A stretch of 64,000 bases of DNA from a virus. Below the pieces are notes generated by a model. That model did not search any database and was not told the DNA's origin. It saw only the letters and a list, made by a program, of their open reading frames with translations. The DNA lies in the IMG/VR virus record IMGVR_UViG_3300046791_000443, positions 6,648 to 70,647 of that record; one strand, given 5' to 3'. The first letter of the stretch is position 1. Each line of letters begins with the position of its first letter. Positions 7,943 to 62,350 of this stretch are shown here, piece by piece. Made by a program: the position numbers and the translations under genes.

Positions 7943-8233
7943 TTACTTGGATCCGGGGGTCGCGTGCCCCTTGGTCTTGCCTTTGCCGGAGGCGGTGCCC
8001 GCCATCGGGTTGCCGTTCCAGCCGCCCATCGACTTGCTACCGCTGACAGTACGCCCACCGCTCGCTCGGCCGAAGCGGCCGGCGTGTGGCGATGGCTTTC
8101 CGCCCTTGATAGGTCCGATAGAGACCCCGCCGCCTTTCTTGCGAGCGACGGCGCCACCAGCATTCTTGCCGACCGCGCCTCCGCTCTGCTTGGCGACAGC
8201 GCCCCCCGCGGCGTGACCTGTACGTCCCTTCAT
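7943..8233 (-). CDS. Small basic Gly/Lys-rich protein with tandem xxGG motifs (putative internal head protein)
   Basis: MKGRTGHAAGGAVAKQSGGAVGKNAGGAVARKKGG...; GGAG Shine-Dalgarno upstream of ATG at 8233. Confidence 0.65.
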   Translation of the reverse strand: MKGRTGHAAGGAVAKQSGGAVGKNAGGAVARKKGGGVSIGPIKGGKPSPHAGRFGRASGGRTVSGSKSMGGWNGNPMAGTASGKGKTKGHATPGSK

Positions 8234-12533: not shown

Positions 12534-12538
12534 GATGA

Positions 12539-12931: not shown

Positions 12932-13129
12932 TTAGCCCTTCTGGATATCTACCAGGGCCTGGCCGAGGAAATCCTTCGCCAATCGCAGCCCCGCTATGAT
13001 GCCGCAATGGTACTTGTAGTCGGCGTGGCTCTGCAACTGCCCAGATGACAGCGTCGCGGTGCTGTCCGCGAGCGCCTGGTCGATCAGCATCTGCGTGCGC
13101 TGCTCGACCCGCTGGTCAAAGGACGACAT
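12932..13129 (-). CDS. Small conserved phage protein
   Basis: 65 aa, DYKYHCGIIAGL; coupled to neighbours, usual position before phage groES. Confidence 0.65.
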   Translation of the reverse strand: MSSFDQRVEQRTQMLIDQALADSTATLSSGQLQSHADYKYHCGIIAGLRLAKDFLGQALVDIQKG

Positions 13130-14313
13130 CAGCTCCTGAAGCCTGGCGTGTGCTGGCCTTCCTTGTGGACCTTGCGCAGGCGGCCCAGGGCCGAACCTGC
13201 ACCGGCATCCTTGCTCATGTAGCCGGTACGGCCACCGCGGGCGCGCGGCATGCCTGGGGGCATGTCAGGTGGCCCCCCAGGCGGGGGGCCCATGGGAGGA
13301 CCACCTGGCGGCGGCCCAGGAGGGGGGCCGCCCATGCCCGGCGGCGGACCAGGCGGCATCGCCTGGGGCGGCGGCGGGGGCGGGCGCACCGGCGCCTGGG
13401 GCGGCGGTGTGTTGGGCTGCTGGCCGCCACCTGGGCTGCCGATGATGATGTTGATGTTGGTCTTGCCCTTGGTGCGACCTCCCTTGGCGCGTTTCTCGCG
13501 CAGGGTCTTCTGGTCTGCATCCTTCGGCCGGGTCGCGTCCTTGACGGTAGCCGCGATCTCGCGCTGCTTGTCGCTCAGCGGGACCATGCGCTCGCTGGCG
13601 CCGCCATTGGCACGCTCGACGCGGCCACCGGCACTGTCAGCCCCGCCGCCCTTCTTCAGGCCCTTGGTGAGCTTGCCCTCGTGCATCTGCTTGTCGTGTT
13701 TGTGGATCGCGGTCTTGATCTCGGCCTTGTCCTGTTTCTTGTCGTCGGCCTTGCCGCCCTTGCTGTGCAGCGTCACGCCGGCCGGGCGCATCGGCGGATC
13801 ATCCGACTTCTCACGGGCGCGCTTGCTCGCCTCGTACTTCTCCATCGCGCCCTCGCGCGGCGGCAGGTACTCGACGCGCTTGGTGCGGATCTGCATCAGC
13901 GGATCGACCACGGGCTTCTTGTCGGCCTTGCCGCCCTTGGCCTTCTCGGCCCGGCCGCCCTTGTTCATCGAGCCGCCGCCGCACTTCTCGGCGCGGCCGC
14001 CGCCTTTGTAGCCACCCTCGTGGAAGCTGCCCTTGGCCTTCTTGTTCTCGTCGGGCACGTTGGTCATCGACAGCGCACCTCCGTTGGCGCGCGGCTCCTT
14101 GCCAGCGTTCACCGGGCCACGATCGCCCTGGACCCGTCCGCCGGCCTTGTAGATCCGCGCCCGCAGCGGCCTGGCGCCGGTTTTCTTGTCGGCATGGAGC
14201 GGCTCGCTGGGCGACCAGGAGCTGGCGTCGACCTTGGTCGGGGACTTGGCGTTGGCCATTTTATTGGCCTTCGCGCGCATCTCAGAGCGGGCTTTCTTCG
14301 CCATAGCTGACAT
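13129..14313 (-). CDS. Basic low-complexity protein with many xxGG motifs and a Pro-rich tail (putative internal head protein)
   Basis: YKAGGRV, RANGGAL, KAKGGKA, RAKGGRT, RARGGRT; start taken at MSAMAKK. Confidence 0.7.
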   Translation of the reverse strand: MSAMAKKARSEMRAKANKMANAKSPTKVDASSWSPSEPLHADKKTGARPLRARIYKAGGRVQGDRGPVNAGKEPRANGGALSMTNVPDENKKAKGSFHEGGYKGGGRAEKCGGGSMNKGGRAEKAKGGKADKKPVVDPLMQIRTKRVEYLPPREGAMEKYEASKRAREKSDDPPMRPAGVTLHSKGGKADDKKQDKAEIKTAIHKHDKQMHEGKLTKGLKKGGGADSAGGRVERANGGASERMVPLSDKQREIAATVKDATRPKDADQKTLREKRAKGGRTKGKTNINIIIGSPGGGQQPNTPPPQAPVRPPPPPPQAMPPGPPPGMGGPPPGPPPGGPPMGPPPGGPPDMPPGMPRARGGRTGYMSKDAGAGSALGRLRKVHKEGQHTPGFRS

Positions 14314-14350
14314 GGGCTCTACCTCGCAGGCCTGGTGTAACGGGGTCTTA

Positions 14351-17300
14351 TCACGCCTCGCCGCCCTCTGCATAGCGACCGGCGACGTCGATCACCCGGC
14401 GGATCTTGCGGTGGAAGTTCTCGCTGATGCGTTCGCCAACGCGGCCGCCGTCAGCGAAGCTGCGCTGACCCCTGCGGATGCTGGCCCGCATCGCCGGCGT
14501 CACATCGAGCTCGTGCAGGCTGTAGCTGTCGCCGCTCTTGCGGCGAAAGTGCTCGGCAAAGTGCTGCTCGCGCATCTCCGGCGTGAGGGCGCGCCAGTAG
14601 GTGTCCTGGGCGTCGGGGTCGACACCGAGCTCGTTCATGACCTCGGTGCCGCTGGCGCCCTCGGGTGGCTTCTTCAGCTTGAAGCCGCCCAGCTTCACCT
14701 CGGCCTTGGGGTCGTGCATGCGGGCGAGCTTCTCGAGCCGCTTGGGCACGATCTTGTCGTAGTAGCCGTTCATCCCCTCGCCGCCGACCTTGAGATCCAT
14801 GCCGCTGTAGGTCTTGGTCTGGTCGGGCTCGGCCTCCTTCATCACCCGCTCGGCCAGCTCGTGGCCGATGACGCCGGGCAGATCCTTCGGCTGATGATTG
14901 CCGTAGTGAACCTGGTTCTCATTCTTGTCGAACGCCCAGATCTCATGGAAGTCGTTAAGGGCTCGTTTGTGCGCGACAATCCTGCTGATCTGTTTGCTGA
15001 GATCGTAGCGATCGGCCTGGTCCTTGCCTCGCGTGAACACGATCTTCTGGTAGTTACCCGCCGCCGCCTCGTGCAGCACGCGCTTCAGCGCCAGGTCGGT
15101 CCACTTCTCGGTGCTCTCGATGAAGGGCGCCCGCGGCGTGCCGTACTTGGCCTCGCGATTGCGATCGCTGTAGGCGCCACCGAAGCGATCGTCGGGGCTC
15201 TCCTTCAACGCCTTGGCATGGATGTCGTCCAGGCTCAGCGGTGCGAAGGCGTAGTGCCAGTCCTTCTGGCCCTTCATCCGGTGGCGCGTGTAGGGCGCAT
15301 CGTCGGCCAGGCCGTTCTCCTTGCGCCAGGGCACGGCGTGGTCCTTGATGATGCCGGCACCGAGATCCTCCTCGGCCTGCTGCGGCGTTACATGCTCGTG
15401 CTCGATCTCGTCCTTCGTGAGCGGCGGCTTGCGGAAGCCCTTGTCGCGCCCTTCCTGGCCCCAGTCGCTCTGGATCTCCTCGACATGCAGGATCTTCTCG
15501 CCGTTGGGCCCGGTGCGATCGCTCATGCGCAGGTGGAACAGCGGGTTCCGCTGATCCCAGTGGCCCGACTTGTAACTGACGCTGTTCTCGTATGCCCTGA
15601 GTTCGTCAGTCGTCTCGGCAAGCTGATCGGTCGCCGCGGTGTGCTCCCTGGACGCCGCCACGAAGGCATCGTGCGAGGCGTCGGACTGCTCGTGCTTGTG
15701 TCGCGCTGCCGCGCGCACCTTGGCCTTCGCCGCCTCGGAGCGGCGCGCCATGGCGGCTGTCATCGCGTTCTTGAGCTCCTGCGTCGTCATGTCGTGCTCT
15801 ATCGGCATGTGGGTTACCACCTCACGGTAGTTCTCGCCCTCCGGCAGCTGGTAGCCCTCGTACTTGGCCGGGCCGATGTTGCCGAAGTCGTTGACGCCGC
15901 GTGAGCGCATCGGCTCGGTGCTGCCGAGCGTCGTCTCCTCGAGCTTCGGCATGTTGTTCAGGAAGTGGTCGCGCACCTCCTTCTTGGTCACGAAGTCACG
16001 GCCGGCGAAGGCCTGGTCGTAGCCCGTCCACTTGAACTCGTCAGGCTTGACGCCGTGCTTGTTGATCAGCGTCGACTTGAACTGCGCCGGGCTCGCCTTC
16101 ATCTGCGGCTGCTTCCACACCGCCTCGGCAGCATGACTGTAGAGCCCGATCGGGGAGAGCTCGCGCTGGTAGTCGTCGACCGGTGCAGGCGGCGGCACGG
16201 GCGTCGGGTCCGTTACGGCACCACCACTGGCGTAGGCGCGCTGGCCCTTGAGGATGCTGGCCTTCATCTTCGGTGTGAGATCGAGCGCGTGCAGCTTCGG
16301 CACTGCCTTGGCCTCGAGCTCGGCCATCTGCGCTCGAGCTTTCTTCTCGTCCTGTGTGACTGGCGTCACATATTCATCTTTCTCAATATCACGCACCCTG
16401 AGATTGCTCAGCACACCCCCGCGATTGGTGAACGACAGCGTGTACTTATCGTGGCCCTTCACCGGATGCGCGTGCAGCTTCACCTCGGCCGCGGGGTCGT
16501 GCTGCTTCGCCAGCTTCTCGAGCGCCCTGGGCACGATCTTGTCGTAGTAGCCCTTCATGCCTTCGCCGCCGACCTTGAGATCGTCGCCACCGAGAATGTG
16601 CGTTCCCGTGCTGGGCAGCTTATTGTCGGGATGCATCAGTTTTTCCGCGACTTCGCGGCCGACGTACTTGTGCAGATCCTCCGGCGTCACGTTGCCCTCG
16701 TTGATCGGCATGCCGCCCTTATGATCGTAGGCAACGAGGGCGTTGTTATCGGAAGAGTAGTGGATCTCTTTGACCTGTTTGCTGAGATCGTAACGCTTGG
16801 CCTGCTCCTCACCCGGCGTGAACACGATGCGATCGTAACCGCCCTTGGCGGCCTCGTGCAGCACGCGCTTGAGGCCGAGCTCGGTCCACTTGCCGGTGTT
16901 GTCGATGTAGGGCGCCGGCGGGACACCATTCTTCTCGGCCGGCGTGGTGAGCTCTGATGCGTAACGTTCTGCTTGCTCTCGATCGTAGTATGCCATCCGG
17001 CGCTGTCCGTTAACAAATACACCGAACGCCGGGCGCCCCTCGAAATTGATCTCACGGATTTCATGAGGCGGCGGTCTGTCAGCACCACTCGCGATACCAT
17101 GGTCGCGCGCCGCCTGGCCCCAGTCGCTCTGCAGCTCCTCGACATGCAGCACCTTCAGCGGCTTGCGCACCTTCTTGAGCTCGAGGCCGGCGTGCAGCTT
17201 CGCCGGCAGGGTCGCCAGGTGTGCCCGCGCCTCCTCCTCGCTGTTGAAGGTCTTGGTCCGGTTACCCGACAGCTTGTTCTGCCAGGCGTACTTCACCACC

Positions 17301-20300
17301 ATCGGCCCGGCACGATCGCTCATGCGGAGGTGCAACAGCGCGTTTTTCTCATCCCAGTGTGATGACTTGTAGCCCTCATGCGACGCATCAAACCGGCGCG
17401 TGATGTCAGCCAGGCGATCGCTCTCTTCCGGCGTCAGCGTCGCCTGTCGCTTCTGCAGCCTGTCTGCTTCGCTGAGCTCCTCTCGGGTCAGCCCCTTGTG
17501 GGGCATGTGCAGCACGACCTCGCGATAGTTCTGGCCACCCGGCAGCTGGTAGTCGCTGTATTTTACGCCGCCCTCTTCACCATCGTCGCCCATGCGATCG
17601 TAACGGCCCTCCTGGTACTGCTTCTCCTCGACCCCCGGCATGTTCTGCAGGAAGTGGTCGCGCACCTCGCGCTTGGTCACCATGTCGCGACCGGCGAAGG
17701 CGCGGTCATAGTTGCTCCACTTGAACTCGTCGGGCTTCACGTTGTGCTTGTTGATCAGCGTCGACTTGAACTGCGCCGGCGAGGCCTTCATCTGCGGCTG
17801 CTTCCACACCGCCTCGGCAGCGTGTGAGTAGAGGCCGAGCGGGTTGACCTGGCGCTGGTAGTCGTCGACTGGCGCTGCAGGCGCCGTCGGCTCCGGCGGC
17901 TGGTTGTGGCCCATAGGAGGTGGTGCCTGGACGGGGCCACCGTCGGCGCGCTTCTTCCAGGTGAGCTTCGGACTGATCGCTGACCTGGCATGCTGCGGAT
18001 GGAAGAGGCGGTACTCCTTCTCCATCGCGGTGACATTGTTTCCGTTGTGGATGGCGCCGTCGTAGCCCGCCTTCACCGCCGCGCGCACGAACTTGGGATC
18101 GTCGAGCACCGGATAGGCGTCCAGATAAAGCTGGCGGTGGCCGTCGGGGTTTTTCTTCAGGAAGTCATCGACGCTGTCGTACTTGTTGTCGGCGTTGACA
18201 TGCTCATGCCAGTTGCTGGTGTTCGTGACATGGTAGGCGTGCTTGCGCGCCAGGCGCCGTGCCTCGAGGCGGCCGAGCTTCTTCTCGATGTCGCCGAGCT
18301 CGACAAACGGATCGTCGGGGCTGTTGATCACCGGGTTCTCGATCTTGAGATAGGCCGGCGTCACCCTGGGCGCATCGATGTACTTGTTCCGGCTGTTGGG
18401 CTCGGTCGCGTAGGTGTTGGCGGCTTCCTTTGAGCCGAACGAGATCGAACCAGGCATTCTGGTGTGGAAGGTGGTGCTGTCGGGGTTCTCCTCGCCGTAC
18501 TCGCCGCGGTAGACGACCAGCGGCTCGCCCTTCTCATCGACCACCTTGCTGTTGCCGAACCACTGGCGCGTCTCGTCGTCGATCGGCCCGCCCATCGCGC
18601 GGGCGACGCGACCGCCGGCGGCGCGGCCCGTTATGGTGCTCCTCACCTGGTCTGGGTCGAAGACGGTGTAGATGTCGGCGTCGCCCTTGCTCTTGTCACC
18701 GACGACATGGACGCCGTCGTGGCCCTGCTTCTTCATGTCGGCCACATCGTCGGCATCCCACTCGAAATGCCGGCCCGCCGTGGCCGCGTCGATGATGTGC
18801 GGGTTCTCCAGCCTCAGATGGACCGGATAGACAGAGCTCTCTCCAAACTTGCCGGCGAACGACGGGCTGTTGCTGAAGTAGGCGGGCGTGCGGAACTTGT
18901 GGATCGACTTCTTGTAGTTGGTGGCGTGGTAGACCGTGAGCGGCTTGCCCTTCTCGTCGACCACCTTGCTCTTGCCGAACCACTTGCGGTGCTCGTCGCT
19001 GCCGACACGGCCACCTGATGCGAAGCCGTACTTCGCGTGCTGCTCCTCGGCAGCACCGACCTCGTCGGCCCACTGCGGCGTGATCTTCTGCACCGGATTG
19101 TGGAGCTGGCGGATCTTGTCCCAGGTACCGCGGCCATAGGCGTCCGCCGAGAACGGATGGGCAATCACCGGCGCCTTCTTGCCGGTCGGCGTCATCATGC
19201 GCTCGAACACCGGGTCGGACATGACATGGTGGCTCTGCAGCGGCGCCGTATCACCCCAATAACTGCCAGCGATCGGCGCCGCGCCGCGGTAGGTGCCGTG
19301 CTTCAGGCGGGTCTCTTCAGCGATGCGATCGGGATCGAAGCGGACGATGCGCGGGCCGATCGTGTTGCCCGGTGTCTCGCGCAGCTCGGGCTCGGTGATG
19401 GCCACGCGCGTGATGCCGACATGGGGCATGCCGCGCCTGTGCCACTCCTTGTTGTCCATGTGCTTGATGATCGTGGCGCGGTGCTCACCACTCAGGCCGG
19501 CAGCAAATTTTGCCGCCTCCCGAGGGTTATCGAGGCCGGGCCACTTCTTCATGATGTCGATCGCCTTGGCGCGCTGCTCCTTCGAGTTTGCCTTGCTCTC
19601 GACGATCGGAACGTGTTCGCCCCTCTTCAGCGATCGATCGAACGCTGTCTTCGTCGTGGCACTCATGCCGCTGCCCGGCATCTGCGCCATCATGGTCTCG
19701 AACATGTGGACTGAGCTGTCGCCTGACGTCGCGCCCATTGGCGCGAAGGCGCCGTAGACCGGCCCGGTCTTGGCGGCCTCCCTGATCTTGTTCTGGAGCT
19801 TGGTGGTGGCCCCTGGCGCACTCTTCCACACCGCACCAGGGTTGAGCTCGCGCATGTAGTCCATGCCAGCGTCCAGGCGAACCGGCCAGGCGAGCTTCTT
19901 GCCGTTGATGTGGGTCAGCACGCCCTGCCGGGTGCGGTCGCCACCCAGGCCGATCAGCGTGCCACCCTTGCCCTCGGTGTAGAGATGCTGCCAGGGCCGT
20001 GTGATCTTGTCCTTGGGCACGACACCACGGATCGGCTTGATGGTTTCGGTGACGTCCTTGGGCGCGATCGCGTGCTGGATGCCGTAGTAGCGATTTTCAT
20101 CAACGATGCGCGGGTTCGTCGTCACCCGGTAGGCGTTAACGATGCCCTTGGCCTTCTCGCGGCTCTCGGGACTGTCGCTGAACGGCGTATGGATCTTCTC
20201 GAGCGCCTGCATGACCGCCTGGGGGTCACGATCACGCAGCTTCTCGGCGTCGCGACCGAAGCCGGCCATCTCCATGGCCCTCAACAGGTGCTCCTGAAGC

Positions 20301-21241
20301 GGTATTTCGGGGCGCCCACCGCGTCCGCCGACAGCGCGGGCGATGCGACCGCCCCTCTTGGCCGTTCGCAGGGCGTCGATGACGTCCTGGTGGGTGGTTT
20401 TCTCGCCCTCGGCGGCGTCCCAGATCGCGTGGTGCGCCAGGTGCTGGTAGTGCGGCGCCAGATCCTTCGGCAGGCTGAGATCCATCGCGCTCTGGCGCCC
20501 CGCCAGGCGCTTCACGGCCTCCGTTGCGCCCTGGCCGGCCTGCCGGCGCAGGTACGGCGACGATGCCTTGCTCGGTTCACCGGTGTTGAGGATCAGCTGG
20601 CGCGCATCGAGCGTCGGCTGGTCACCGCGGCCGAGCTGGGCGGCGAGGAAACCGGCCTTGGCACTCCTGATGCCCTTGAGGCCGCGCATCTCGTCGCGCC
20701 ATTCGCTGGGATCGCTCTGCCCCTTCATCGATCGGCGCACCAATTCGGAGACGCGCCCCTCCTGGCCAGGCAAATTCTTGGGTGCCCAGCGCAGCGCGTC
20801 GGGCATGTCCTTGTCGACCTTGCCGTAGGTCCGCAGTTTCTGCTGCGCGTCGTGGATTGCCTCCTCGTCGACCCGTCCGGCCTCGGCATTGTCGAGGTAC
20901 TGCTGCCCCATCTTGGTGTGCAGCCAGTGTCCGAAGGCGCCCTCGGGCCGTACCCTGTCGTTGTCGTCGACCGATGGCGGCAACAGCAGACCCGCCTTGC
21001 GCAGGATCAGCGCCTTGCGTGCCGTGCGCTGGATCGAGAAGCGCGTCAGCGTGTAAGCCTTGACCAGATCACGAGGTGACAGGCCCTGCTCGGCGGCGCG
21101 ACGCGCCGTCTCGTTCATGAACTCACCGAACTTCTCGACATGCGAGGGGATCTCGTCGAGCGAGAGCTCGTCGCGTACCTTCTTCAGCGACCGCCACTTC
21201 CAGTCACCGATCACCGGGCTCCTGGGGTCACGGTAGCTCAT
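14351..21241 (-). CDS. Large polyvalent protein (2296 aa): HhH glycosylase-like domain, unknown domain, two ADP-ribosyltransferase-like domains, two copies of an EE.QSDW domain
   Basis: Two WFG.SKVVDEKG.PL.VY[HR]...L..ENP...G.DG domains; duplicated PQMKASPAQFKSTLINKH...LRMSDR...LHVEE.QSDWGQ domain. Confidence 0.8.
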   Translation of the reverse strand: MSYRDPRSPVIGDWKWRSLKKVRDELSLDEIPSHVEKFGEFMNETARRAAEQGLSPRDLVKAYTLTRFSIQRTARKALILRKAGLLLPPSVDDNDRVRPEGAFGHWLHTKMGQQYLDNAEAGRVDEEAIHDAQQKLRTYGKVDKDMPDALRWAPKNLPGQEGRVSELVRRSMKGQSDPSEWRDEMRGLKGIRSAKAGFLAAQLGRGDQPTLDARQLILNTGEPSKASSPYLRRQAGQGATEAVKRLAGRQSAMDLSLPKDLAPHYQHLAHHAIWDAAEGEKTTHQDVIDALRTAKRGGRIARAVGGRGGRPEIPLQEHLLRAMEMAGFGRDAEKLRDRDPQAVMQALEKIHTPFSDSPESREKAKGIVNAYRVTTNPRIVDENRYYGIQHAIAPKDVTETIKPIRGVVPKDKITRPWQHLYTEGKGGTLIGLGGDRTRQGVLTHINGKKLAWPVRLDAGMDYMRELNPGAVWKSAPGATTKLQNKIREAAKTGPVYGAFAPMGATSGDSSVHMFETMMAQMPGSGMSATTKTAFDRSLKRGEHVPIVESKANSKEQRAKAIDIMKKWPGLDNPREAAKFAAGLSGEHRATIIKHMDNKEWHRRGMPHVGITRVAITEPELRETPGNTIGPRIVRFDPDRIAEETRLKHGTYRGAAPIAGSYWGDTAPLQSHHVMSDPVFERMMTPTGKKAPVIAHPFSADAYGRGTWDKIRQLHNPVQKITPQWADEVGAAEEQHAKYGFASGGRVGSDEHRKWFGKSKVVDEKGKPLTVYHATNYKKSIHKFRTPAYFSNSPSFAGKFGESSVYPVHLRLENPHIIDAATAGRHFEWDADDVADMKKQGHDGVHVVGDKSKGDADIYTVFDPDQVRSTITGRAAGGRVARAMGGPIDDETRQWFGNSKVVDEKGEPLVVYRGEYGEENPDSTTFHTRMPGSISFGSKEAANTYATEPNSRNKYIDAPRVTPAYLKIENPVINSPDDPFVELGDIEKKLGRLEARRLARKHAYHVTNTSNWHEHVNADNKYDSVDDFLKKNPDGHRQLYLDAYPVLDDPKFVRAAVKAGYDGAIHNGNNVTAMEKEYRLFHPQHARSAISPKLTWKKRADGGPVQAPPPMGHNQPPEPTAPAAPVDDYQRQVNPLGLYSHAAEAVWKQPQMKASPAQFKSTLINKHNVKPDEFKWSNYDRAFAGRDMVTKREVRDHFLQNMPGVEEKQYQEGRYDRMGDDGEEGGVKYSDYQLPGGQNYREVVLHMPHKGLTREELSEADRLQKRQATLTPEESDRLADITRRFDASHEGYKSSHWDEKNALLHLRMSDRAGPMVVKYAWQNKLSGNRTKTFNSEEEARAHLATLPAKLHAGLELKKVRKPLKVLHVEELQSDWGQAARDHGIASGADRPPPHEIREINFEGRPAFGVFVNGQRRMAYYDREQAERYASELTTPAEKNGVPPAPYIDNTGKWTELGLKRVLHEAAKGGYDRIVFTPGEEQAKRYDLSKQVKEIHYSSDNNALVAYDHKGGMPINEGNVTPEDLHKYVGREVAEKLMHPDNKLPSTGTHILGGDDLKVGGEGMKGYYDKIVPRALEKLAKQHDPAAEVKLHAHPVKGHDKYTLSFTNRGGVLSNLRVRDIEKDEYVTPVTQDEKKARAQMAELEAKAVPKLHALDLTPKMKASILKGQRAYASGGAVTDPTPVPPPAPVDDYQRELSPIGLYSHAAEAVWKQPQMKASPAQFKSTLINKHGVKPDEFKWTGYDQAFAGRDFVTKKEVRDHFLNNMPKLEETTLGSTEPMRSRGVNDFGNIGPAKYEGYQLPEGENYREVVTHMPIEHDMTTQELKNAMTAAMARRSEAAKAKVRAAARHKHEQSDASHDAFVAASREHTAATDQLAETTDELRAYENSVSYKSGHWDQRNPLFHLRMSDRTGPNGEKILHVEEIQSDWGQEGRDKGFRKPPLTKDEIEHEHVTPQQAEEDLGAGIIKDHAVPWRKENGLADDAPYTRHRMKGQKDWHYAFAPLSLDDIHAKALKESPDDRFGGAYSDRNREAKYGTPRAPFIESTEKWTDLALKRVLHEAAAGNYQKIVFTRGKDQADRYDLSKQISRIVAHKRALNDFHEIWAFDKNENQVHYGNHQPKDLPGVIGHELAERVMKEAEPDQTKTYSGMDLKVGGEGMNGYYDKIVPKRLEKLARMHDPKAEVKLGGFKLKKPPEGASGTEVMNELGVDPDAQDTYWRALTPEMREQHFAEHFRRKSGDSYSLHELDVTPAMRASIRRGQRSFADGGRVGERISENFHRKIRRVIDVAGRYAEGGEA
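15962..16182. repeat. Direct repeat copy (pairs with about 17651-17870) inside the polyvalent gene
   Basis: Near-identical stretch gcttgttgatcagcgtcgacttgaactgcgccgg...gccttcatctgcggctgcttccacaccgcctcggcagc at both positions. Confidence 0.8.
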
Positions 21242-23589
21242 GTCGAGATGTCACCCAGGCTCTTGGTCGGGCCCTCGACGCCCTTGCTCGAGCGCCGGTC
21301 CTGCTCCTGCTGACGCTGCTGGATATCCTGGAAGGCCTCCTTGGCGATCGGCTCGACCAGGGCGGCACTCTCGGGATGGACGGCGATGTTCTGCGCCAGG
21401 TCGATCAGCTGCAGACGCGCGCCCATCAGGCGGTCCTCGTCCTTGCTGTCGAGATCCTTCTGCTTCATCGCGATGTCGCTGCGCGCCTTGATGGCGCCCA
21501 GGCCCTGCTCGTTGGTGCCGAGCTCCTTCTCCATCTGCAGCTTGGCCTGGCCGAGGCCGAGGTTGCCGTCGATCTTGCGCTGCTCGAGCTGGAGCTCGCC
21601 CTGCTTGATGCCCAGGTTCTGCTTCTTGATGTCGATCTCGGCCTTGTCGTTCTCCATCTCGGGCGTCGGCTTGCCGAGCGCCTCGGGCGGCGCCAGCAGC
21701 TGGTCGGGGTTGTAGCCGATGGTGCGCACGACGATGCGCTCGACGGCGATCGGGTCGTACATGCCCGGCGGCGCCGCGCCCTGGGCGCTCTTGAGGGCGA
21801 CCACCTTGGCGATGCGCTGGGTCTGGCTGGCGGTGTTGGGGTCGGCCACTGGGACCAGGTTGCACTGGCCCAGGGCGCGCTCGAACGTCTCCTGGTCCCA
21901 CGGGTAGGAGGGGGCGTCGTTGCACTCCCAGAAGCTCTCCGGGTGCTCCCTGAAGACGTCGAGGATGCAGGCGAACTCGAGCGACTGGGCGGCGTGCATC
22001 CGCTTGTGGACGCTGTTGATGATCTTCTGGGCCTGCTCGATCGTGGCCAGCGTCGTGCCCACCGGGGTGTTGCCCCTGGGCTCCTCGACGGGCTGCTCGC
22101 TGGTGCCGCCCAGGCGCATGCCGGTCTGCGCCATGTTGTCGACCAGCGTCATCAGCGGCGCCATCTGGGTGGTGTTGTAGGGCAGCGGCATCACCGCCTG
22201 GCCGATCGGCATGCCCTGGGTGTCGATGGGCGAGCCGCCCCCTGGCGGCACGCGCTTCACCAGCGTGTCCTGGCGACCGGCCTGCTTGGCGTAGAGAAAC
22301 CCAGGGAAGTTGGCGAACATTCCATTGTCCAGCATCTCGCGCCACGCAGCAGTGATAGCGTTCGTGGTGTTGCCGAGGATGTGGAGAAGACCGATGCCAT
22401 AGAAACCGAAACCAGGGACGAACAGGTAGGGCACGAATGTACGACGGCGCTCGGGAAGAGGTCCGACTGATTTCTTGTTGTAGTCGCGGCAGACCGAAAG
22501 GATCTGACGGGAGGATATATCGAGGGTGACACGGTACGGCACCTCCAGGCCCGATGGTTTGCCACGCCACTTGTGCTCGAAACCCTTGATGTCGAGCTCG
22601 CAGTAGGTCTCGTACATCGGGCGGTCGCGGTCCGCGGCGCGCAGGCTCGCCTGGCTGATGCCCTGCTGGTCCTTCTCGGCACGATCGATGGCGTTGAGGT
22701 CGGGCTCCTTGGCGTCACCGACATCGACGTCGCGATAGACGCCCAGGATCTGCATGCGCTTGAAGGTCGATCGCTTCATGGCGATGCGATGGGTGATGCG
22801 CGAGGCGGTCTGCAGCGACGTCGCCTCGTTGTTGACGATCAGATCCTTGGCCTCGACAGTCTCGCTGACCGGCCGGTTTCGGATCGGGCAGAAGTAGATC
22901 TTCTTGAAGCCCATGCCCTGGAAGCCGAGCTTCAGGAACATGCGATCGGTGTCAGGATAGTACTCGGTCGCCGTCGAGGTCAGGTAATGGTTGATGTCTT
23001 TCTGGAAGTGGTTGGCGAGCTCATCGAGGTCAGGGCTGGAGTTGTTGTCGTCGTCGCGGATCTTTACCGGGCCATCGACCGGGAGGAACTCCCCGTTGGC
23101 GTTCGCCTGGAACCGCAGAATGGCTTCCAGCAGCAGCGGGTGACGTACCCGGCTCATGCCCTCGACAGCAGCCCCGTCGCCCTGGGCGCCGCTTTCCGGT
23201 TTTTCAAGCTTGAGACCGAGAAGAGCCACGCTCTCTGCGACCATGTCGACCCACTCCTGGCGCGACAGGTCGTCCTCTTCGATGCCGCGGATGAGCTCGT
23301 CGCAGATCCGTGACAGCTCGTTGGGGTCGATGTCGTCGGCCAGGTTCTTGAACCAGCCCTCGTTGGCGGCGCGCTCGGCCGACTGCACCGGCTTGCCGTC
23401 CATCGAGATCGTGATCGAGCCGTCGGCGTGCTCGATCTTGATGACGTTGCCCTTGTCGTCGAGGATCGGCTGGTCGACGCCCTCGGGCGGGTCGTCGCTG
23501 GTGTTGACCTCGACCGGCTCGAGCTGCTTCTCGGGCTCGTCGCGGCTGTCGACCAGTCGCAGGTTGGGGTTCAGTCCAGGTGTCGCCAA
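21238..23589 (-). CDS. Portal protein
   Basis: 783 aa after terL; SRQEW, HPLLLEA..RFQA, FKKIY, GFGFYGIGL.H, GTTLA.IEQ, VHKRMH, PVADPN; TTG start. Confidence 0.85.
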   Translation of the reverse strand: MATPGLNPNLRLVDSRDEPEKQLEPVEVNTSDDPPEGVDQPILDDKGNVIKIEHADGSITISMDGKPVQSAERAANEGWFKNLADDIDPNELSRICDELIRGIEEDDLSRQEWVDMVAESVALLGLKLEKPESGAQGDGAAVEGMSRVRHPLLLEAILRFQANANGEFLPVDGPVKIRDDDNNSSPDLDELANHFQKDINHYLTSTATEYYPDTDRMFLKLGFQGMGFKKIYFCPIRNRPVSETVEAKDLIVNNEATSLQTASRITHRIAMKRSTFKRMQILGVYRDVDVGDAKEPDLNAIDRAEKDQQGISQASLRAADRDRPMYETYCELDIKGFEHKWRGKPSGLEVPYRVTLDISSRQILSVCRDYNKKSVGPLPERRRTFVPYLFVPGFGFYGIGLLHILGNTTNAITAAWREMLDNGMFANFPGFLYAKQAGRQDTLVKRVPPGGGSPIDTQGMPIGQAVMPLPYNTTQMAPLMTLVDNMAQTGMRLGGTSEQPVEEPRGNTPVGTTLATIEQAQKIINSVHKRMHAAQSLEFACILDVFREHPESFWECNDAPSYPWDQETFERALGQCNLVPVADPNTASQTQRIAKVVALKSAQGAAPPGMYDPIAVERIVVRTIGYNPDQLLAPPEALGKPTPEMENDKAEIDIKKQNLGIKQGELQLEQRKIDGNLGLGQAKLQMEKELGTNEQGLGAIKARSDIAMKQKDLDSKDEDRLMGARLQLIDLAQNIAVHPESAALVEPIAKEAFQDIQQRQQEQDRRSSKGVEGPTKSLGDIST

Positions 23590-52724: not shown

Positions 52725-55700
52725 CTAGAGCCCCCTGCTCGCGGTGGCCAGCGCGTCGGCCACGGCATCGTCCGGTGTGTGAAGGAACGCCTTGGTCTCC
52801 TTGCCGTGCCCCTTGCGGATCTGCTCGGCCTTGCGGACCAGGGCGGCGGCCCTGCTCTTGTGATCGAGCTTGAACGTCGTGCGGCCACCAGCGGCGCGCT
52901 TGCCGCGCGCCTTCTCGGTCTCCTTGGCGCCGGCCACCACGCCCGGCATGGCGTAGTAGGCTGAGTCCGCCAGGGCCTGGCCCACGCGCATGGGGTAACT
53001 CGGGTCGGTGTACTTCTCGGCACCGATGCGAAGCATCTTGAGACCGAGCTCCGGGTCGATGATGCCAGCGCGGATCAGGTCGTTGCGACTGGTGATGCCG
53101 GCGAGCTTGGCATTGTGCGCCATCTGCTGAAGCTTCTGCCAGCCGATGTCGGCCGCCTTGATGGCGAGGCCCGGCCAGATACCCTGCAGCCCGCCGATGA
53201 TCGTGAAGTCACGAAGGTTCTTCGGCTGGAACGGCGCCTTCTCCGCAGCAAAGGCCCGATCGATCGCTTCCAGGTTGCCCGCCGTGATCGAGTTCTGGCG
53301 CAGCTTGCCGGGGATGGCGACGTTCTCGTGCGCGGCCTGGCTGGAGAAGTCCTTCGCCAGCGCCTCCCACACCTTCATGTGCTCGGCGGTGAAGCCGGCC
53401 GCCTCGAGGACGGCGCGGTTGCTGTTCATCAGCTTGAGGAACTTCGGACCGTTGAACGTGTGCGGGTTGCCGGCGACCTGGTCGATCGAGCCGCCGAACA
53501 TGTTCTCGATGAGGAGATGCTTCATGCCCTCGACCACATCGGGCGGCGCGTCCTTCATGAAGGCCTGCAGCTTGGACGGGCCGTTGCGCGGATCCCCCAT
53601 GATGTCACCGACGATGGCGCGGCTCGCCTCGGCGCCCTTGGCGCCGCTGCGCTCGTCGATGAATTTCCGCGCCAGCTCCGACTGCACGTTGGCGACGTTC
53701 TGGAACTTGGCCATGAAGCCCGGCTGCGCCTCCTCGAGCGCCGCCAGCGAGCCGCCGTACTTCTCGAGGAATTTTTGCACTGACTTGGGCGTGATGCGGG
53801 TGACGGTGCCGCCCTCGGCCGTCTGCATCGTCTCGCCCATGCTCTGCAGCAGCGCGACAGCGTGATCCTGCAGCGCGCTGATCGCCTCGGGCGCGTTGTT
53901 GGTCGCCTGGAGCACCTTGCGGGTGACCTCGGCGCCGGTGTCGATGCCGCCTCCCGTCTTCCCAGGGAACGCCTTCGCCGCCAGCTTGCCGGCGTCGCTC
54001 TCGCCGGCGCCGATGATGCCGCGCACCAGGGAGTTGTCGAAGATGTTGGCCTGCTGGACGCGGTTCGCCAAAGCCGCCTGGAGATCGCCCGCCGCCTGCG
54101 GCGTGAGGTTGGGCTCGCCCGGCACCGCCGATGTCGGCCCGGCCTCCTCGACGTCGAGCTTGGCCAGGCGCGCCGCCAGCGTGTCGCCCTCCTTCATCTT
54201 GCCCTGCTTCACCAGCTCGGCTTCGTGCGCAGCCTGGTTGGCGACCGCGTTCTTGACGTCGCCCATGGCGGCGTCGCGCAGGATCTTGTAGTGCCGGTGC
54301 GCCCCTGGGTCGCCCTGGCTGGTCGCCGTCGGTGCCGTCTCGCGGACCTTGAGATTGATCTCCTTGAGGTAGGCCTGGAGATCGTTGAAGCCGACGACCT
54401 TCGGCCAGGTCGTGGCGCGATCGAGGTAAGTCTTGACGCCCGGCGACGGCGCGCCACCGAAGCCGGGGCGTTCCTCGGCGGCGATCGTCTTGACCGCCTC
54501 CTGCACGCCCGGCGTCAGCAGCTGGAACTGATCGTGCGGATCGATCGCGTTGTAGAGCCGGCTGGTCTGCTGCTTGAACCACTTCCAGTACTCGGTGGCC
54601 TTCTGCTTCAGGAGGCCGCCGGCCTCACCCGCCGCCATCGGGTCACCGAGCTTCGACACACCCTCGTCGAGCGCCCGCTGCCGCTCCTCGACGAACTGCG
54701 CCACCGCAAGCGGCGATGAGTCAGGGTCGAGCGTTCCCTTGCCGGCCTCGACGCGGCCCTGGGCGCGGTCGGTCTTCACATCGTCGATCGTGCGCGCAGC
54801 GCCCGCCTCGCTACCTTCCGGCAGCGGCTTGCCTTCCGCTCGCGCGGCGCGCTCGAGCGCAGCCAGGCCCTCGTCACCGGTCAGCTCAGCGATCGTCTTG
54901 GTGCCTTGCGGCAGCACACGATTTGGCGCGCCTGGACCGTGCTCGCCCTCGGCCACCTGGCCCTCGATCAGGCCGCCCGTCTCGTCGGCCATCTTGGCCT
55001 TTTCGTAGAGCGCCTGCTTGTCCTTGGCCGCGGCGGTCCTGGCCAGCTCGCGCGACGCCTCGCGGAAGGTCTGGTCGGGGCTGGTCTTCGGCATGTAGCG
55101 ATCCTTGGCGTAGCGAGCGCCCTGGACGCCGAACGGCAGCGCGAACGATGTGATCAGCCCTGGGTTGGGATTATTCGGTGAGACGTCGTTGACCACATCG
55201 GTCGCCACGCCGGTGCCGAAGCCGGTCGCCAGGGCGCCGAACCCGGCGCCAGGCGACAACAGCATCGGCATCGCCATCTCGCCGCCGGCCCTGATCTTCT
55301 TACCGACCCAGCTCTTCGGCTCGTACTCACCGACCAGCGGCTTGAAGGTCTCCTTGTAGATGCTCTCGGCGGTCTCACCCAGCGGGTGCGCCTTCTCCTT
55401 GTCGATGAAGTACTTCAGGCCCCACTTGTTGGCGCCGTCGGGCATGGCGTCGTAGGCGCGCTGCCAGGCGGCCATCTTCCGCTCGTGCGCCTCCATCCGC
55501 TCTTTTTCATTTCGCTCCAGGATCTCCTTGGTCGTGGTGGGCCCGCTCCAGATCGACTGCACGCCGGCGCCGATCGCGCGGCCGGTGTCCATGACGCCCT
55601 GGCCGATGCCCTTCATGCCGGCGACGCCCTTGAGGACTGTCGTGGCGATGTTCTTGGCGCCGCCCAGGGGATCGTCGGCGCTGCTGTTGCCAAGCATGCC

Positions 55701-55853
55701 GGGGCGCATGGCAGCGAGATCCTCGTCCGACATGCCTTCGGTGCCTGGAAGCTTGTAGCCAGGCGGCTCGGCAGCCTTGTCCGTCGCGGCCTTGGCGGCA
55801 GCCGCCTTGGCTTTTGCTTCGGCATCGAGCTGGGCGAGTTCTTCGTCGGTCAT
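52725..55853 (-). CDS. Internal virion / DNA ejection protein
   Basis: About 1040 aa, Ala-rich helical, hydrophobic GxxxG segments, at the end of the tail operon. Confidence 0.6.
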   Translation of the reverse strand: MTDEELAQLDAEAKAKAAAAKAATDKAAEPPGYKLPGTEGMSDEDLAAMRPGMLGNSSADDPLGGAKNIATTVLKGVAGMKGIGQGVMDTGRAIGAGVQSIWSGPTTTKEILERNEKERMEAHERKMAAWQRAYDAMPDGANKWGLKYFIDKEKAHPLGETAESIYKETFKPLVGEYEPKSWVGKKIRAGGEMAMPMLLSPGAGFGALATGFGTGVATDVVNDVSPNNPNPGLITSFALPFGVQGARYAKDRYMPKTSPDQTFREASRELARTAAAKDKQALYEKAKMADETGGLIEGQVAEGEHGPGAPNRVLPQGTKTIAELTGDEGLAALERAARAEGKPLPEGSEAGAARTIDDVKTDRAQGRVEAGKGTLDPDSSPLAVAQFVEERQRALDEGVSKLGDPMAAGEAGGLLKQKATEYWKWFKQQTSRLYNAIDPHDQFQLLTPGVQEAVKTIAAEERPGFGGAPSPGVKTYLDRATTWPKVVGFNDLQAYLKEINLKVRETAPTATSQGDPGAHRHYKILRDAAMGDVKNAVANQAAHEAELVKQGKMKEGDTLAARLAKLDVEEAGPTSAVPGEPNLTPQAAGDLQAALANRVQQANIFDNSLVRGIIGAGESDAGKLAAKAFPGKTGGGIDTGAEVTRKVLQATNNAPEAISALQDHAVALLQSMGETMQTAEGGTVTRITPKSVQKFLEKYGGSLAALEEAQPGFMAKFQNVANVQSELARKFIDERSGAKGAEASRAIVGDIMGDPRNGPSKLQAFMKDAPPDVVEGMKHLLIENMFGGSIDQVAGNPHTFNGPKFLKLMNSNRAVLEAAGFTAEHMKVWEALAKDFSSQAAHENVAIPGKLRQNSITAGNLEAIDRAFAAEKAPFQPKNLRDFTIIGGLQGIWPGLAIKAADIGWQKLQQMAHNAKLAGITSRNDLIRAGIIDPELGLKMLRIGAEKYTDPSYPMRVGQALADSAYYAMPGVVAGAKETEKARGKRAAGGRTTFKLDHKSRAAALVRKAEQIRKGHGKETKAFLHTPDDAVADALATASRGL

Positions 55854-58800
55854 TACTTCACCGGTTGCCACTTCTTGATGGGGCCCTGCCAGACGTAGGT
55901 GACGCCACCAACGACCGTCGTCGTCTCGCCGGCCACGCGCTCTGCTTCGACGGGCACACCCGGCAACGACACCGCGCCTTCACGCGCCGGTGTCGCCTTG
56001 GGCGGTGAGGCCCACATGTTCTTCGGGTCACTCTGCCACTGCTGCCAGGGGACGGTGTAGTCCGTCGTGTAGGGCAGCGGCTGGCCATCCTTGTCCCTGA
56101 TCGCCTGCGGCGAGCGCATCTGGATGTCGGCGCGCCGCTCCATCAGCTCGAGCATCGTCTTGATCGCCTCGGGCGTCAGGTTGACCGATGGTGTGCCTTC
56201 GGTGGCCTGCGTGAACGAGCCCTGGTGCAGCGCCGACCCCGGCACGGCATTCTGGGCGGCGAGACCCTGCAACGCGAACTGCAGCTTCCTCGACTCCTCG
56301 ACCGCCGCGGCATCCGTGCCCGTGGCCTTCTTGACGTCGATCGGATCGAGGCCGAGGTACTGCAAGCCTGCCGCGATGGCGGACGCCTGCCCGGCATAGA
56401 CGCCGAGCTTGGTCGTCGGCGTCAGCTTCGGCTTGCCGTTCTCGTCGACCGCCGGCAGGCCAGTCTTCGTGTCGGTGTCCTGGGTGAACAGGGTGTTGCG
56501 GAACGTGTTGACCAGCTGCTTGGCCTGCAGCCCCTGCTGGTGCTCTTTGGCGAGCTGTTCCTTGAGCGCGTTGTTGGTCGCGAAGATGTTCTTGTTGCGC
56601 TCCTCCTCGCCCCTCCGCTCGACCGTCCCCGGCGTGATGCTGCCCGAGACCTTGCCGGTGTCGTCGACCGACGAGGTGACGCCCGTGGTGACACGCGCCT
56701 TGTCGAGATCGTCGGCCTTCTTGTAGAGCTCCTCGGCAACATCACCCAGGCCAGCGGCTGCGGCCTCGGCCGCCCTGGCACGCAGCCCGGCGGGATCCTG
56801 GCTGAGTTGCGCCGCACCGACACCAGGCGGGAGATCCTTGGGCGGCGTGGTCGGCGGCGGCGGACGCTTCATGGCCCCCGCAGGCGGCGGTGGCGGCTCG
56901 GGGCGAAACTGGGCCAGCTGGACCGGCGGCTGCTCCTCCTCTTCGCCGGTCACTGAGCCGGCATCCTGCTTGCGGATCCGCTTGGGCATGTAGAGATGAG
57001 CACGCCCACCGAAGCGGCGCGTCGAGGGTCCGGCCGCCTCGGCGCGCCGTGCGGCGGCCAGGGCTTCGGTGAGCCGCTCCCATTCCTTCTGCTCGTCGGC
57101 GTTCCTGCCGCGACCGCGGGTGCTGGCCTCGAAATTCTTGAGCTCCTGGTCGGCCCGATCGACGGCCGCCTTGAGCACCGACATGCCGCCCTGGCTCCCG
57201 GCCGCCACCTTGCGGCGCTCCCACTCGAGAAGCGACTGCGTGAACTCGGGTGTCACGCCGAGGGACTTGCCATCCCTGCCGAGCGCATTGCCGCTGCGTG
57301 CCCGCTCGAGGGCAGCGTCAGCCTCGCGCATGCGCCGCTCGCGCTCGGCCGGATCCTGCGTCGACATGGCGTTGTGATAGAGTGCCACGAAGTCGTCGCG
57401 CGGCGAGACGGCATTGCTGAAGGCCTGGATGGCGGGTGACTGCGTCTTGAGATAGTCGGTGTAGCCGGCGGGCCTGGTGTCGATGTTGGCGCCCGACATG
57501 CCGACCAGTTCCAGATACTTGTTGCGCATCTGGTTGTAGATCTTGTCGTAGGCCGACACATCGGCGCGGGGGTCGGCGGCCAGGATGCCGGAACGCTCGC
57601 GGCTGATGTTGGTCATCGCCTCGGAGATCTTGCCGGCCTGGGCGATCGACTGCGTCTGCTTGCTGATGTCGAGCTGCTGCTGGCGCTGGCCCCATGTCGC
57701 GTACTGCGGCGCCGCCGCCTGGAGGCCCTCACCGATCGCCACACCGAGCCACGGCGACTTCGACGCCATCATGTTGCCGACGAAGCTCAGCCCAGGGACG
57801 ATGTAGCGTTCGTTGCGATCGAGCCAGTCGCCGGCGTCGCCCCACAGGCTCTTCGCCTTGGGCGTCGCGGCACCGAGACCACTGGCCGACGGTTCGATCG
57901 GCGGTGCGCCCGTGCCGGGGTCTGTCTTGGCACCACCAACACCCTTCTCCAGGGGCTTGCCCATGCGCTGGCCGGAGATCTTCCACAGGTAGTCCTGGGT
58001 CTCAGCCGGCAGGAACTTGCTCCACTCGGCGCCACCCTTCCTGACCGCCTCGGTCACGGCGCCGGGGCCGGCGTTGTAGGCCGCCGCCGCCTTGTAGCTG
58101 TCTCCGAACACCCGCAGCTGCTCGTTGTAGTAGGCCGTGCCGAGCGAGCGGTTGTAGTCCTCGGCTGCCTTGTCCTTGACCGGGTCGCCGGTCTTCGGCT
58201 GGTTGAAGAGATCCGGCCGCCATTCGACACCAGCCAGGCGCGCCGCCTCGGGGCCTGTCTTGGGCATCACCTGCATGATGCCGACCGCGCCCGCCGTCGA
58301 TGTCGTCGGCTTGCCCTCCTTGTTGAAGTGGCTGTTGGAGCTCTCGATCGTCGGGATGCGACCGAGGACGCCCTGCCCGCTGTTGAAGGCCTTGTCCTTG
58401 TCATCGGTCGACGCCACAGGCGGCTGAGCGGGCGGGACGGGGTCCGGTGGCGACGGCACGCCGCCCTCGTTGATGTCGCCCATGCTCGTCCGCTCTGCAT
58501 TCGCGACGGCCTGCGCACCGCCGACACCAGGTGTCGGGGACGGTGGCACCACGACAGGAGGCGCTCCAGGAGGCCTGCCAGCCCCGCCCACGCCTGGTGG
58601 CGGCGCGGCCGACGGAGGCGCTCCAGGGGGCTCATCCAGCCTCTGGCGGGGCCTCTGATCGGCCCCACCCAGGCCGGGGGCCGGTGGCTTCAGGCGCTCG
58701 AGCAGCTGGTCGCGCTCGGTGTCCTCGGGCGTGATCTCCCGGCGCAGGCCCTGGGCGTTGCTCGCCTCGGTCGCCATCAGGCGGGCGCGCTCCTCCTCGG

Positions 58801-61837: not shown

Positions 61838-62350
61838 CTACTCCGTCGAAGCACCACCCACCGCTTCCCCGGTGCGCGCGTTGTAGAGAAAGTAGGCTCC
61901 GGCTGGCTCACCGAAGTGTCGCTTGTACAGCCGGATCTTGGCCTCGGTCCGGCTGTTGCTTAACACCCCGATCAGCAGCGGCATGCCCATGCGGTCAGCC
62001 ACACGCTTGCTGAACTCGCACATCCTGCTCGCGCGGCCGCCCTTGGCGGACCGGTAATCGGGATGAATGAAAATGGCACGTTCCTCGATAACGCGATCGT
62101 CTGAGTACCACGGCGCGACGATCCGCAACAGCACGGCGCCCTGCGGCGGACCGTCAGGCGGGCCGATCAGGCCCATGATGCCGTGGTTGAGATTGAGCGC
62201 CTGCCAGACATCGTCGAGCAGCTTGAGCTCGTTGGGATTGACGAAGCCGTTCTCCCTGGTCGCCAGGCGCGTGAGATCCATGACATCGTGAACGTCATCG
62301 GGCGTGCCGGTGCGCACGACGAGCTCGGCAGCGGGCACCACGGTGTCCAT
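61838..62350 (-). CDS. GNAT-fold tail assembly protein
   Basis: VR..TPDD, FIHPDYRSAKGG; position just before the ejection proteins. Confidence 0.6.
   Translation of the reverse strand: MDTVVPAAELVVRTGTPDDVHDVMDLTRLATRENGFVNPNELKLLDDVWQALNLNHGIMGLIGPPDGPPQGAVLLRIVAPWYSDDRVIEERAIFIHPDYRSAKGGRASRMCEFSKRVADRMGMPLLIGVLSNSRTEAKIRLYKRHFGEPAGAYFLYNARTGEAVGGASTE

Follow-up and report, generated by a model that had tools for sequence, protein, structure and literature searches.

A podophage gene that lies directly behind the portal gene in virus record IMGVR_UViG_3300046791_000443 raises the question of how an enzyme chain of 250 kDa is packed, leaves the head and becomes active. The window analyzed here comprises 64,000 nt of this 70,647-nt genome, which encodes an SU10-like portal and adaptor; all positions given below are those of the window. 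The gene encodes a protein of 2296 residues, whose modules are separated by a short peptide centred on Gly-Gly. The original prediction held that this peptide separates every recognisable domain of the protein, recurs in five other proteins of the window, and is a cleavage site or a capsid-loading signal. The results presented here show that, in the polyvalent protein as in putative ejection proteins, each folded module is followed at its C-terminal edge by one short linear motif, which lies in otherwise disordered linker. Comparison with relatives further shows, at the level of sequence, that the motif is specific to a clade of podophages with SU10-like portals and travels with modules that have been shuffled. 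The motif gives a testable handle on the question above and predicts where the chain would be cut or held.

The 2296-residue protein is a clear polyvalent protein in the sense of Iyer et al. 2017. It joins unrelated effector domains in one chain, carries the ART-PolyVal signature and has head-morphogenesis genes as neighbours; its gene starts 3 nt inside the end of the portal gene, within a terminase-portal-scaffold-capsid cluster. Gene identities were taken from profile searches (Pfam, PHROGs and NCBIfam), and the set of open reading frames (ORFs) of the window is crude. The first module, D1, has the fold of HhH-GPD DNA glycosylases (VIA-align Z 16.2, root-mean-square deviation 2.9, 205 residues aligned with Thermotoga Ogg, 3n0u_A) and, judging from its model, is probably a glycosylase-like enzyme delivered from the head. 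D1 has an invariant cluster of His and Asp residues (H267, H270, H271, D275, H284 and D286) and adjoins the portal gene in at least 193 homologues. D2 weakly resembles YTH/ASCH/PUA-like domains (Z 5-6). The GNAT-like core (residues 1129-1671) matches GNAT acyltransferases, with a best Z of 11.0, and all 50 matches listed are acyltransferases. The GNAT-like module is present as two tandem copies of ~560 residues (14456-17857), with large insertions in the core and no Pfam family; its structural neighbours include tRNA-acetylating toxins and one anti-CRISPR acetyltransferase, a likeness at the level of the fold only. At least 193 homologues of the D1-D2 pair were found at E 1e-5 or better, and at least 1196 homologues of the GNAT-like module in public protein data at E 1e-10 or better, each set being scored on the 8000 candidates sharing most words. 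Relatives that share modules also carry InPase, LPD23, PBECR5, GP88, SLT, Hydrolase_2 and phage-lysozyme domains.

The motif does separate every recognisable domain, at six of six junctions, with boundaries taken from homology, from Pfam and PHROG matches and from two structure models. All seven strings quoted for the protein in the original prediction are present, including AKRGGRIARAVGGR and RAAGGRVARAMGGPI. The nine copies of the motif all lie at the six module junctions or the C-terminus, and the remaining 13 GG dipeptides fall within domains and do not fit the motif. In the first model, of D1 and D2 (mean predicted local distance difference test score (pLDDT) 89.9, built on a 61-sequence alignment), the only segments with pLDDT <50 are residues 297-316 and 742-745, which are its two motif sites. 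In the second model, order ends at residue 1671 and pLDDT is <50 from residue 1672, the Gly-Gly pair being residues 1673-1674. The N-terminal 266 residues of the second model, which hold the ART-like domain, had no alignment depth and gave a poor fold, and the low pLDDT at 876-884 and 1098-1104 is therefore uninformative. The pair of copies at residues 873-887 lies between the Pfam match to ART-PolyVal (762-869) and the match to phrog_8642 (927-1085). BLAST matches to relatives break at the motif, with query ends at residues 746/747, 1676/1678 and 2270/2296, and matches of GNAT-like module a start at residues 1124-1132. Module order is permuted in relatives, where the GNAT-like module precedes D1-D2, and the motif follows the modules whatever their order. 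The arrangement GG-helix-GG of the C-terminal tail is shared by the closest relative, L002.

The core motif, [YFRK]-[AK]-x-G-G-x-[VIAT], spans ~7 residues on both sides of the Gly-Gly pair. The consensus of 532 sites is [Y 0.27, F 0.18, R 0.16, K 0.14]-[A 0.79, K 0.16]-[D/R/E]-G-G-x-[V 0.61, I, A, T]-[D]. The search pattern restricted position -2 (A/K/S), the GG and the +2/+3 side (V/I/A/T), and left position -3 unrestricted. The frequencies at position -2, P4 in protease notation, are thus those among the only three residues that the pattern allowed (Ala 0.79, Lys 0.16, Ser 0.05). After the pair, position +1 is A/S/E/R, position +2 is V/I/A/T (V 0.61, within the restriction of the pattern) and position +3 is D/E/P. 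P4, P2 and P1 are small residues. Successive copies are mostly 8-9 residues apart, in the window in GGRIARAVGG, in GGRVARAMGG and in a 96-residue ORF. Alignment of homologues shows the Gly-Gly pairs to be conserved like core domain residues: the pair G297/G298 does not vary among 61 D1-D2 homologues, G743/G744 reach at least 90% conservation, and G1673/G1674 and G1102 are invariant in 27 sequences (alignment A4). The GNAT-like module ends in SILKGQxAFAxGGxV, with the strict motif at 62 of 75 ends and close variants at the remaining ends among those listed; in related loci the strict motif stands at 11 of 13 such ends, both misses being incomplete alignments.

The motif is more than a product of composition. 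The pattern of the original prediction has 17 matches vs 0.41 expected in seven proteins (the six named and one neighbour), and none of 1000 shuffles reaches 17, including shuffles within 15- or 30-residue windows that keep the local Gly/Ala richness. Gly/Ala composition alone therefore does not explain the frequency of the motif, because no shuffle, global or local, reaches the observed count. The other 59 ORFs (13,108 residues, 123 GG dipeptides) contain one match vs 0.34 expected, and a Gly-rich tail fibre with 31 GG dipeptides contains one loose match. No copies at all were found in portal, terminase, capsid or replication proteins, and the motif is confined to proteins of the head and ejection gene clusters. 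An unbiased scan of all gapped three- and four-letter words, made with no prior assumption, recovered the motif directly behind poly-proline words (RA.GG, 12 vs 1.38; A.GGR, 11 vs 1.38). The independent test lies in the relatives, because the pattern was derived from this window. There the enrichment holds, with 261 matches vs 6.8 expected in the 119 GNAT-like-module proteins among the matches listed; 17 of the 119 have no match. In 12 relatives, none of 52 stringent sites falls within a Pfam-matched stretch. Such stretches cover 11% of the residues (p ~0.002 by our own arithmetic), and several of the 52 sites lie 5-25 residues outside one. The Gly codons of the motif (GGC 36, GGT 12, GGG 6, GGA 4) follow bulk usage (480, 128, 68 and 25) and the flanking codons vary freely, so that selection acts on the peptide, not the DNA.

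The motif belongs to a phage lineage and not to a domain. The ORFs after the portal gene contain at least three loose matches in 41 of the 43 IMG/VR loci that have a related portal followed by 3 kb or more of sequence. The two misses are L063 and L042, and in L042 the ORF started before the cut-off and has three matches otherwise. The AT-rich pelagiphage HTVC027P also carries the motif (KKADGGRIGYS, YADGGRIGFN and FKNGGKK-stop), which excludes an artefact of G+C content. In four other lineages with similar proteins, the motif is not enriched: the internal proteins of Caulobacter phage RW (two loose matches in eight proteins), the 2986-residue protein of Octadecabacter BD virus 1 (1 vs 0.95 expected), F116 gp60 (2 vs 0.66 expected) and a Dolichospermum phage protein with two GNAT-like modules.

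The five other carriers named in the original prediction contain the motif as claimed. The Lys/Gly/Pro-rich protein encoded at 13129-14313, credited with about ten copies, has nine strict matches and looser ones, and with the pattern four are observed vs 0.05 expected. A member of its family follows the polyvalent gene in nearly all relatives, with 4-16 copies each. The family, which includes for example the product of L048:2419-4365, has an N-terminal M-S-E...A-R...K-x-K...R-L, many xxGG copies, a hydrophobic T-N-I-N-I-I-I strand, a Pro/Met-rich stretch and a C-terminal G-x-G-x-G-R-L-E-K...Y-G. Five copies, as predicted, and two looser ones are found in the ORF at 7943-8233; its status as a gene is uncertain, because MW202675.1, the closest named record, has no counterpart. 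All five predicted strings (KAAGGPL, YAKGGSV, YSKGGDV, YAEGGEV and LATGGRA) are present in the 1993-residue protein, at residues 482, 662, 818, 913 and 994, in the low-complexity region between the N-terminal domain and SLT. KAAGGPL lies 23 residues after a match to Peptidase_S74, a self-cleaving intramolecular chaperone (nt 60458-60604, residues 411-459), which is upstream of SLT. RAAGGRT of the protein encoded at 52725-55853 lies 53 residues from the end, and in the MW202675.1 counterpart 51 residues separate RKSGGRV from the end. The protein encoded at 62350-63066 contains RADGGA and KAKGGRT. A 171-residue GNAT-like protein (61838-62353), conserved in MW202675.1, is encoded among the putative ejection genes; its YRSAKGGRA, counted by neither search pattern, is probably the acetyl-CoA loop of a GNAT fold rather than a junction motif. 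A likeness of YADGGRI to YD/RHS repeats was set aside, the register being different.

Table 1. Motif sites, modules and neighbouring genes in the window (nucleotide positions of the window; residues of the protein concerned)
Feature	Nucleotides	Strand	Residues	Remarks
2296-residue polyvalent protein	14351..21241	-		directly downstream of portal gene
D1	20354-21241	-	1-296	modelled domain
D2		-	about 340-738	modelled domain
ART-PolyVal		-	762-869	Pfam, E 3.2e-16
ART-like domain, phrog_8642		-	927-1085	PHROG match
GNAT-like module a		-	about 1129-1671	homology and model
GNAT-like module b		-	about 1690-2262	homology; followed by 30-residue tail
Junction D1/D2, AKRGGRIARAVGGR	20318..20362	-	about 294-308	AKRGGRI then RAVGGRG, copies 8 residues apart
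Junction D2/ART-PolyVal	19004..19024	-	740-746	FASGGRV
Junction ART/ART-like, RAAGGRVARAMGGPI	18581..18625	-	873-887	RAAGGRV then RAMGGPI, 8 residues apart
Junction ART-like/GNAT-like module a	17930..17950	-	1098-1104	RADGGPV, then Pro-rich linker
Junction module a/module b	16214..16234	-	1670-1676	YASGGAV
C-terminal tail	14354..14458	-	2262-2268; 2290-2296	FADGGRV, 20-residue helix-like stretch, YAEGGEA, stop
394-residue Lys/Gly/Pro-rich protein	13129..14313	-		~10 motif copies, TNINIII strand, Pro-rich stretch, conserved C-terminus
96-residue ORF	7943..8233	-		five motif copies, four exactly 8 residues apart
1993-residue putative ejection protein	55853..61834	-		SLT 1167-1268; S74-like 411-459
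~1042-residue putative internal protein	52725..55853	-		RAAGGRT nt 52878-52898
238-residue protein	62350..63066	-		RADGGAD right after small N-terminal domain (phrog_2423); KAKGGRT nt 62539-62559
Portal, SU10_portal family	21238..23589	-		anchors head gene cluster; zero motif copies
Large terminase	23821-25500			profile match
SU10-like adaptor	6539-7237			profile match
Major capsid protein	9350-10264			profile match
Scaffold candidate, coiled-coil	11691-12602			profile match
Cpn10-like protein, in head cluster	12539-12928			PHROG E 7e-8; Pfam Cpn10 E 0.003

The setting of the carriers suggests where their products go. The genome has a G+C content of 63-72% and nearly all genes on the minus strand. 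Besides the head genes (Table 1), profile searches identified tail fibres and a replication block with primase/VapE, family A polymerase, SNF2 helicase and DUF2800 exonuclease. The small terminase (Terminase_2, 31552-32196) lies ~6 kb from the large terminase, with small ORFs between them. A second structural cluster (51150-63413) encodes the 1993-residue protein with its SLT transglycosylase domain and large proteins without a known family; by analogy, it matches the ejection proteins of short-tailed phages in position and type. From gene order, the SLT domain and the analogy with polyvalent proteins and the SU10 ejection proteins, the motif carriers are probably packaged in the virion. The portal is 58% identical to that of the closest named record, uncultured phage MW202675.1, and 25-31% identical to those of HTVC023P-type pelagiphages, Roseobacter phages CRP-901/902, cyanophages and Caulobacter phage RW. 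Capsid genes 61-79% identical occur on phage-sized contigs binned with many phyla and also on large Rhizobium and Acidisoma isolate contigs. Those within 200-880-kb contigs of Rhizobium, Acidisoma and a Rhizobiales isolate (L096, L108, L109, L110 and L113) are 68-72% identical. Some relatives are thus prophages of Alphaproteobacteria, because their capsid genes sit inside large isolate contigs, and integrated relatives exist in an otherwise lytic-looking clade.

The motif is often accompanied by a second feature. Many sites are flanked by a short amphipathic helix, after or before the Gly-Gly pair, and in most homologues the D1/D2 linker reads GG...HP-L-A-x-A-M...G-L-P-G...GG. Half of the relatives (120 of 239) end 2-40 residues past a site. 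In 69 of these 120, the tail is of the type V-V-D-R-A-L-x-L plus basic residues, and other classes recur. At least six tail classes recur in all, for example N-I-E-R-A-L-S-L-T-S...H-D-R-D-A-G and V-Y-D-P-A-E-I-D-A-I-A-A, and many tails begin M-x-D-V-x-R-A-L-x-I-A. The helix pattern of the relatives' tails has no match in any protein of interest in the window.

A constant feature that stands beside variable sequence on both sides is presumably read by a common factor. The reading placed first, tentatively and at somewhat less than an even chance, is that an endoprotease recognises the motif and cuts at or beside Gly-Gly. The 250-kDa polyprotein would then be divided into its individual effectors while the head is assembled or afterwards. 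The same processing would remove the short helices found beside many sites, at termini or in linkers, and would break the Lys/Gly-rich protein down into small basic peptides. The enzyme could be encoded by the phage, and so far unrecognised, or be a widely conserved protease of the host. Processing is ranked first because each junction keeps its own nearly invariant copy, because the length and small residues of the motif fit a protease site, because the flanking helices and tails look like removable peptides, and because there is precedent in T4 and the giant phages. A further reason is the prediction of processing by Iyer et al. Conservation site by site is expected of cleavage sites, but not of redundant targeting tags.

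Several observations weigh against processing. In the 70.6-kb genome, Pfam, PHROGs and NCBIfam, which are sequence profiles only, find no peptidase family except the self-cleaving S74-like domain, and no canonical prohead protease, as the original prediction had stated for the window. Pfam peptidase families are also absent from 34 polyvalent proteins of relatives (22 + 12), and the fold matches of D1, D2 and the GNAT-like module are all to non-protease folds. A conserved protein of 212 residues without a family in the head cluster (11043-11681; signature P-D-G-W-x-Y-E-W-K...G-W-E-P-V-P-A-S-R-H-P-E-M-M-P) is without a conserved Ser/Cys/His/Asp catalytic set. In atlas look-ups, this protein and one of 248 residues matched only unnamed viral clusters, leads to DUF2213 and a crAss cargo protein being below significance. 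Some copies lie 2-4 residues from the C-terminus (YAEGGEA-stop in the window, HARGGVAK-stop and FKNGGKK-stop in relatives), and it is not obvious what a cut there would achieve. Because the hosts of relatives range from SAR11 to Rhizobiales and cyanobacteria, a protease supplied by the host would need to be universal. Finally, no virion proteomics was found in the accessible literature on the clade, and the available text of the CRP-901 paper mentions neither mass spectrometry nor a protease.

A possible alternative, although clearly short of an even chance, is that the motif is not cleaved but is a docking or packaging signal. Alone or with the adjacent helix, it would bind a head component such as the capsid interior, the scaffold or the portal for loading into the procapsid, in the manner of encapsulin cargo-loading peptides or of the T4 capsid-targeting sequence. 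Such a signal would be restricted to proteins of the head and ejection clusters, as the motif is, and would often stand at or near a C-terminus, as in the 120 relatives above. Small basic proteins with arrays of 5-16 copies would gain avidity, and the strong conservation of the major capsid protein within the clade (71-88% identity) is what a shared receptor would show. However, a single tag would suffice for each protein, whereas every junction retains a nearly invariant copy, and just six of 50 complete motif-bearing ORFs of related loci have a copy in the last 25 residues. The C-terminus of the scaffold, the obvious capsid-binding element, is also without the motif: scaffold tails are conserved but different.

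It is unlikely, but less so than the explanations that follow, that the motif is a passive structural element, a helix stop and hinge inherited with each module that perhaps aids unfolding and threading through the tail channel. In D1, D2 and the GNAT-like module, the final helix or strand does lead directly into the motif, Gly-Gly gives flexibility, and each module type has its own variant (AM-R-H-A-A-x-GG after D1, SILKGQxAFAxGG after the GNAT-like module). A hinge would not account for the same core, with preferred residues at -3, -2 and +3, after unrelated folds and in arrays without folded domains. Furthermore, in other phage lineages, modules homologous to the GNAT-like and ART ones manage without the motif, and ordinary linkers are not invariant.

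It is very improbable that the motif recruits a universal host factor, such as a chaperone, to each unfolded module after ejection, as the GroES mobile loop binds GroEL. Ejected proteins must refold, and a universal partner would fit the diversity of hosts. The head cluster also contains the Cpn10/GroES-like gene, whose loop reads K-T-K-G-G-V-Y; the gene is present as well in HTVC027P, MW202675.1 and Caulobacter phage RW. In the GroES loop, however, three hydrophobic residues follow GG, unlike in the motif, where Val/Ile at position +2 is the one hydrophobic residue, between A/S/E/R at position +1 and D/E at position +3. Moreover, motif arrays are absent from Caulobacter phage RW, which nevertheless has the GroES gene. 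Last, a composition artefact or a DNA-level word promoting recombination between modules has next to no chance of being correct: G+C is 63-72%, several carriers are Gly-rich and modules are shuffled at these points, but the shuffles and HTVC027P refute an artefact as far as sequence statistics go, other Gly-rich proteins hold at most one chance match, and synonymous codons in the motif are as in bulk sequence. A site of the A-x-G type cut by signal peptidase was also set aside, Lys being common at that position and a hydrophobic core seemingly lacking.

Endoproteolytic processing thus keeps first place among these explanations. A broader proposal, doubtful at present, is that the motif is part of a modular junction code used across the clade. 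An effector domain ending in [YF]-A-x-G-G-x-V, often with an amphipathic helix, would plug into a head-cargo polyprotein and be released or positioned by a new kind of Gly-Gly-directed factor. This factor might be an unrecognised protease fold, an activity of the portal or capsid, or a universal host enzyme. If the proposal is true, it would describe a new processing system and provide a ready tag for loading foreign proteins into phage heads and releasing them from there. If the motif is a signal for cleavage or loading, it could also be used to bring chosen proteins into phage heads, and the missing protease would be a discovery in itself. In addition, the motif shows where modules begin and end in hundreds of metagenomic proteins that have no annotation. 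Among the members of the clade are prophages of Rhizobiales and the abundant marine pelagiphages of the HTVC023P type, and the motif occurs in pelagiphages that dominate ecologically. Polyvalent proteins are regarded as the first weapons delivered by a phage into the cell.

Polyvalent proteins have been proposed to be processed into separate domains, and the processing was attributed to zincin-like metallopeptidase domains (Iyer et al. 2017, PMC5512222). Like the polyvalent proteins in the available text of that study, the protein of the window is a giant chain of unrelated effector domains beside head genes; unlike them, neither it nor the 34 proteins of relatives have a detectable zincin-like metallopeptidase. 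The main text of PMC5512222 does not describe a Gly-Gly junction motif, and the words 'linker' and 'glycine' are absent from it. The head of SU10 (Kuravirus) contains five ejection proteins, gp20-24, one of which is a transglycosylase (PMC9509320). SU10 has the same portal and adaptor families, and its transglycosylase is comparable with the 1993-residue SLT protein. In the text available, however, neither a polyvalent protein nor a Gly-Gly motif is reported for SU10, and 'cleav' and 'protease' are absent from PMC9509320, a further point against processing. The accessible phage literature, including papers on HTVC023P-, HTVC027P- and CRP-901-type phages, contains no description of a Gly-Gly junction motif.

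Among eukaryotic viruses, adenovirus adenain and pS273R of African swine fever virus (ASFV) are clan CE cysteine proteases whose consensus site has Met, Ile or Leu at P4 before x-G-G. The likeness to such cleavage, to which the original prediction had appealed, holds for the format: x-x-G-G plus a variable residue occurs in several core proteins, including small basic DNA-associated ones. It fails at P4, which is Ala (79%) or Lys (16%) here and not a large hydrophobic residue, and with regard to the enzyme, since the sequence profiles of Pfam and PHROGs give no match to a clan-CE-like protease in the genome. The cargo-loading peptides of encapsulins are short, conserved and usually C-terminal behind a flexible linker, and guide cargo inside an HK97-fold shell. 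The motif is likewise short and conserved, and 120 of 239 relatives end 2-40 residues after a copy, but its sequence is different and it is mostly internal and repeated, with only the polyvalent protein in the window ending with one.

The prohead proteases provide the closest comparison. T4 gp21 cuts after Glu at the motif L/I-x-E, and T4 also has a capsid-targeting sequence; giant phages have prohead proteases such as phiKZ gp175 and SPN3US gp245. In these systems, as among the putative internal proteins of the window, many proteins have a single short motif in common, some of them in several copies. The motif of the known systems adjoins short targeting peptides that are removed, and some internal proteins end up as small peptides. 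The motif described here is common to six proteins from the head and ejection clusters and is not shared by the other 59 ORFs, as would be expected of a prohead-type system. The known systems differ in having a protease gene that is recognisable in the head cluster and in cutting after Glu, whereas sequence profiles reveal no such gene here and the motif is centred on Gly-Gly. Although the analogy fails on the protease and on the residue cut, the motif would work most like the shared cleavage-and-targeting motifs of T4-type heads.

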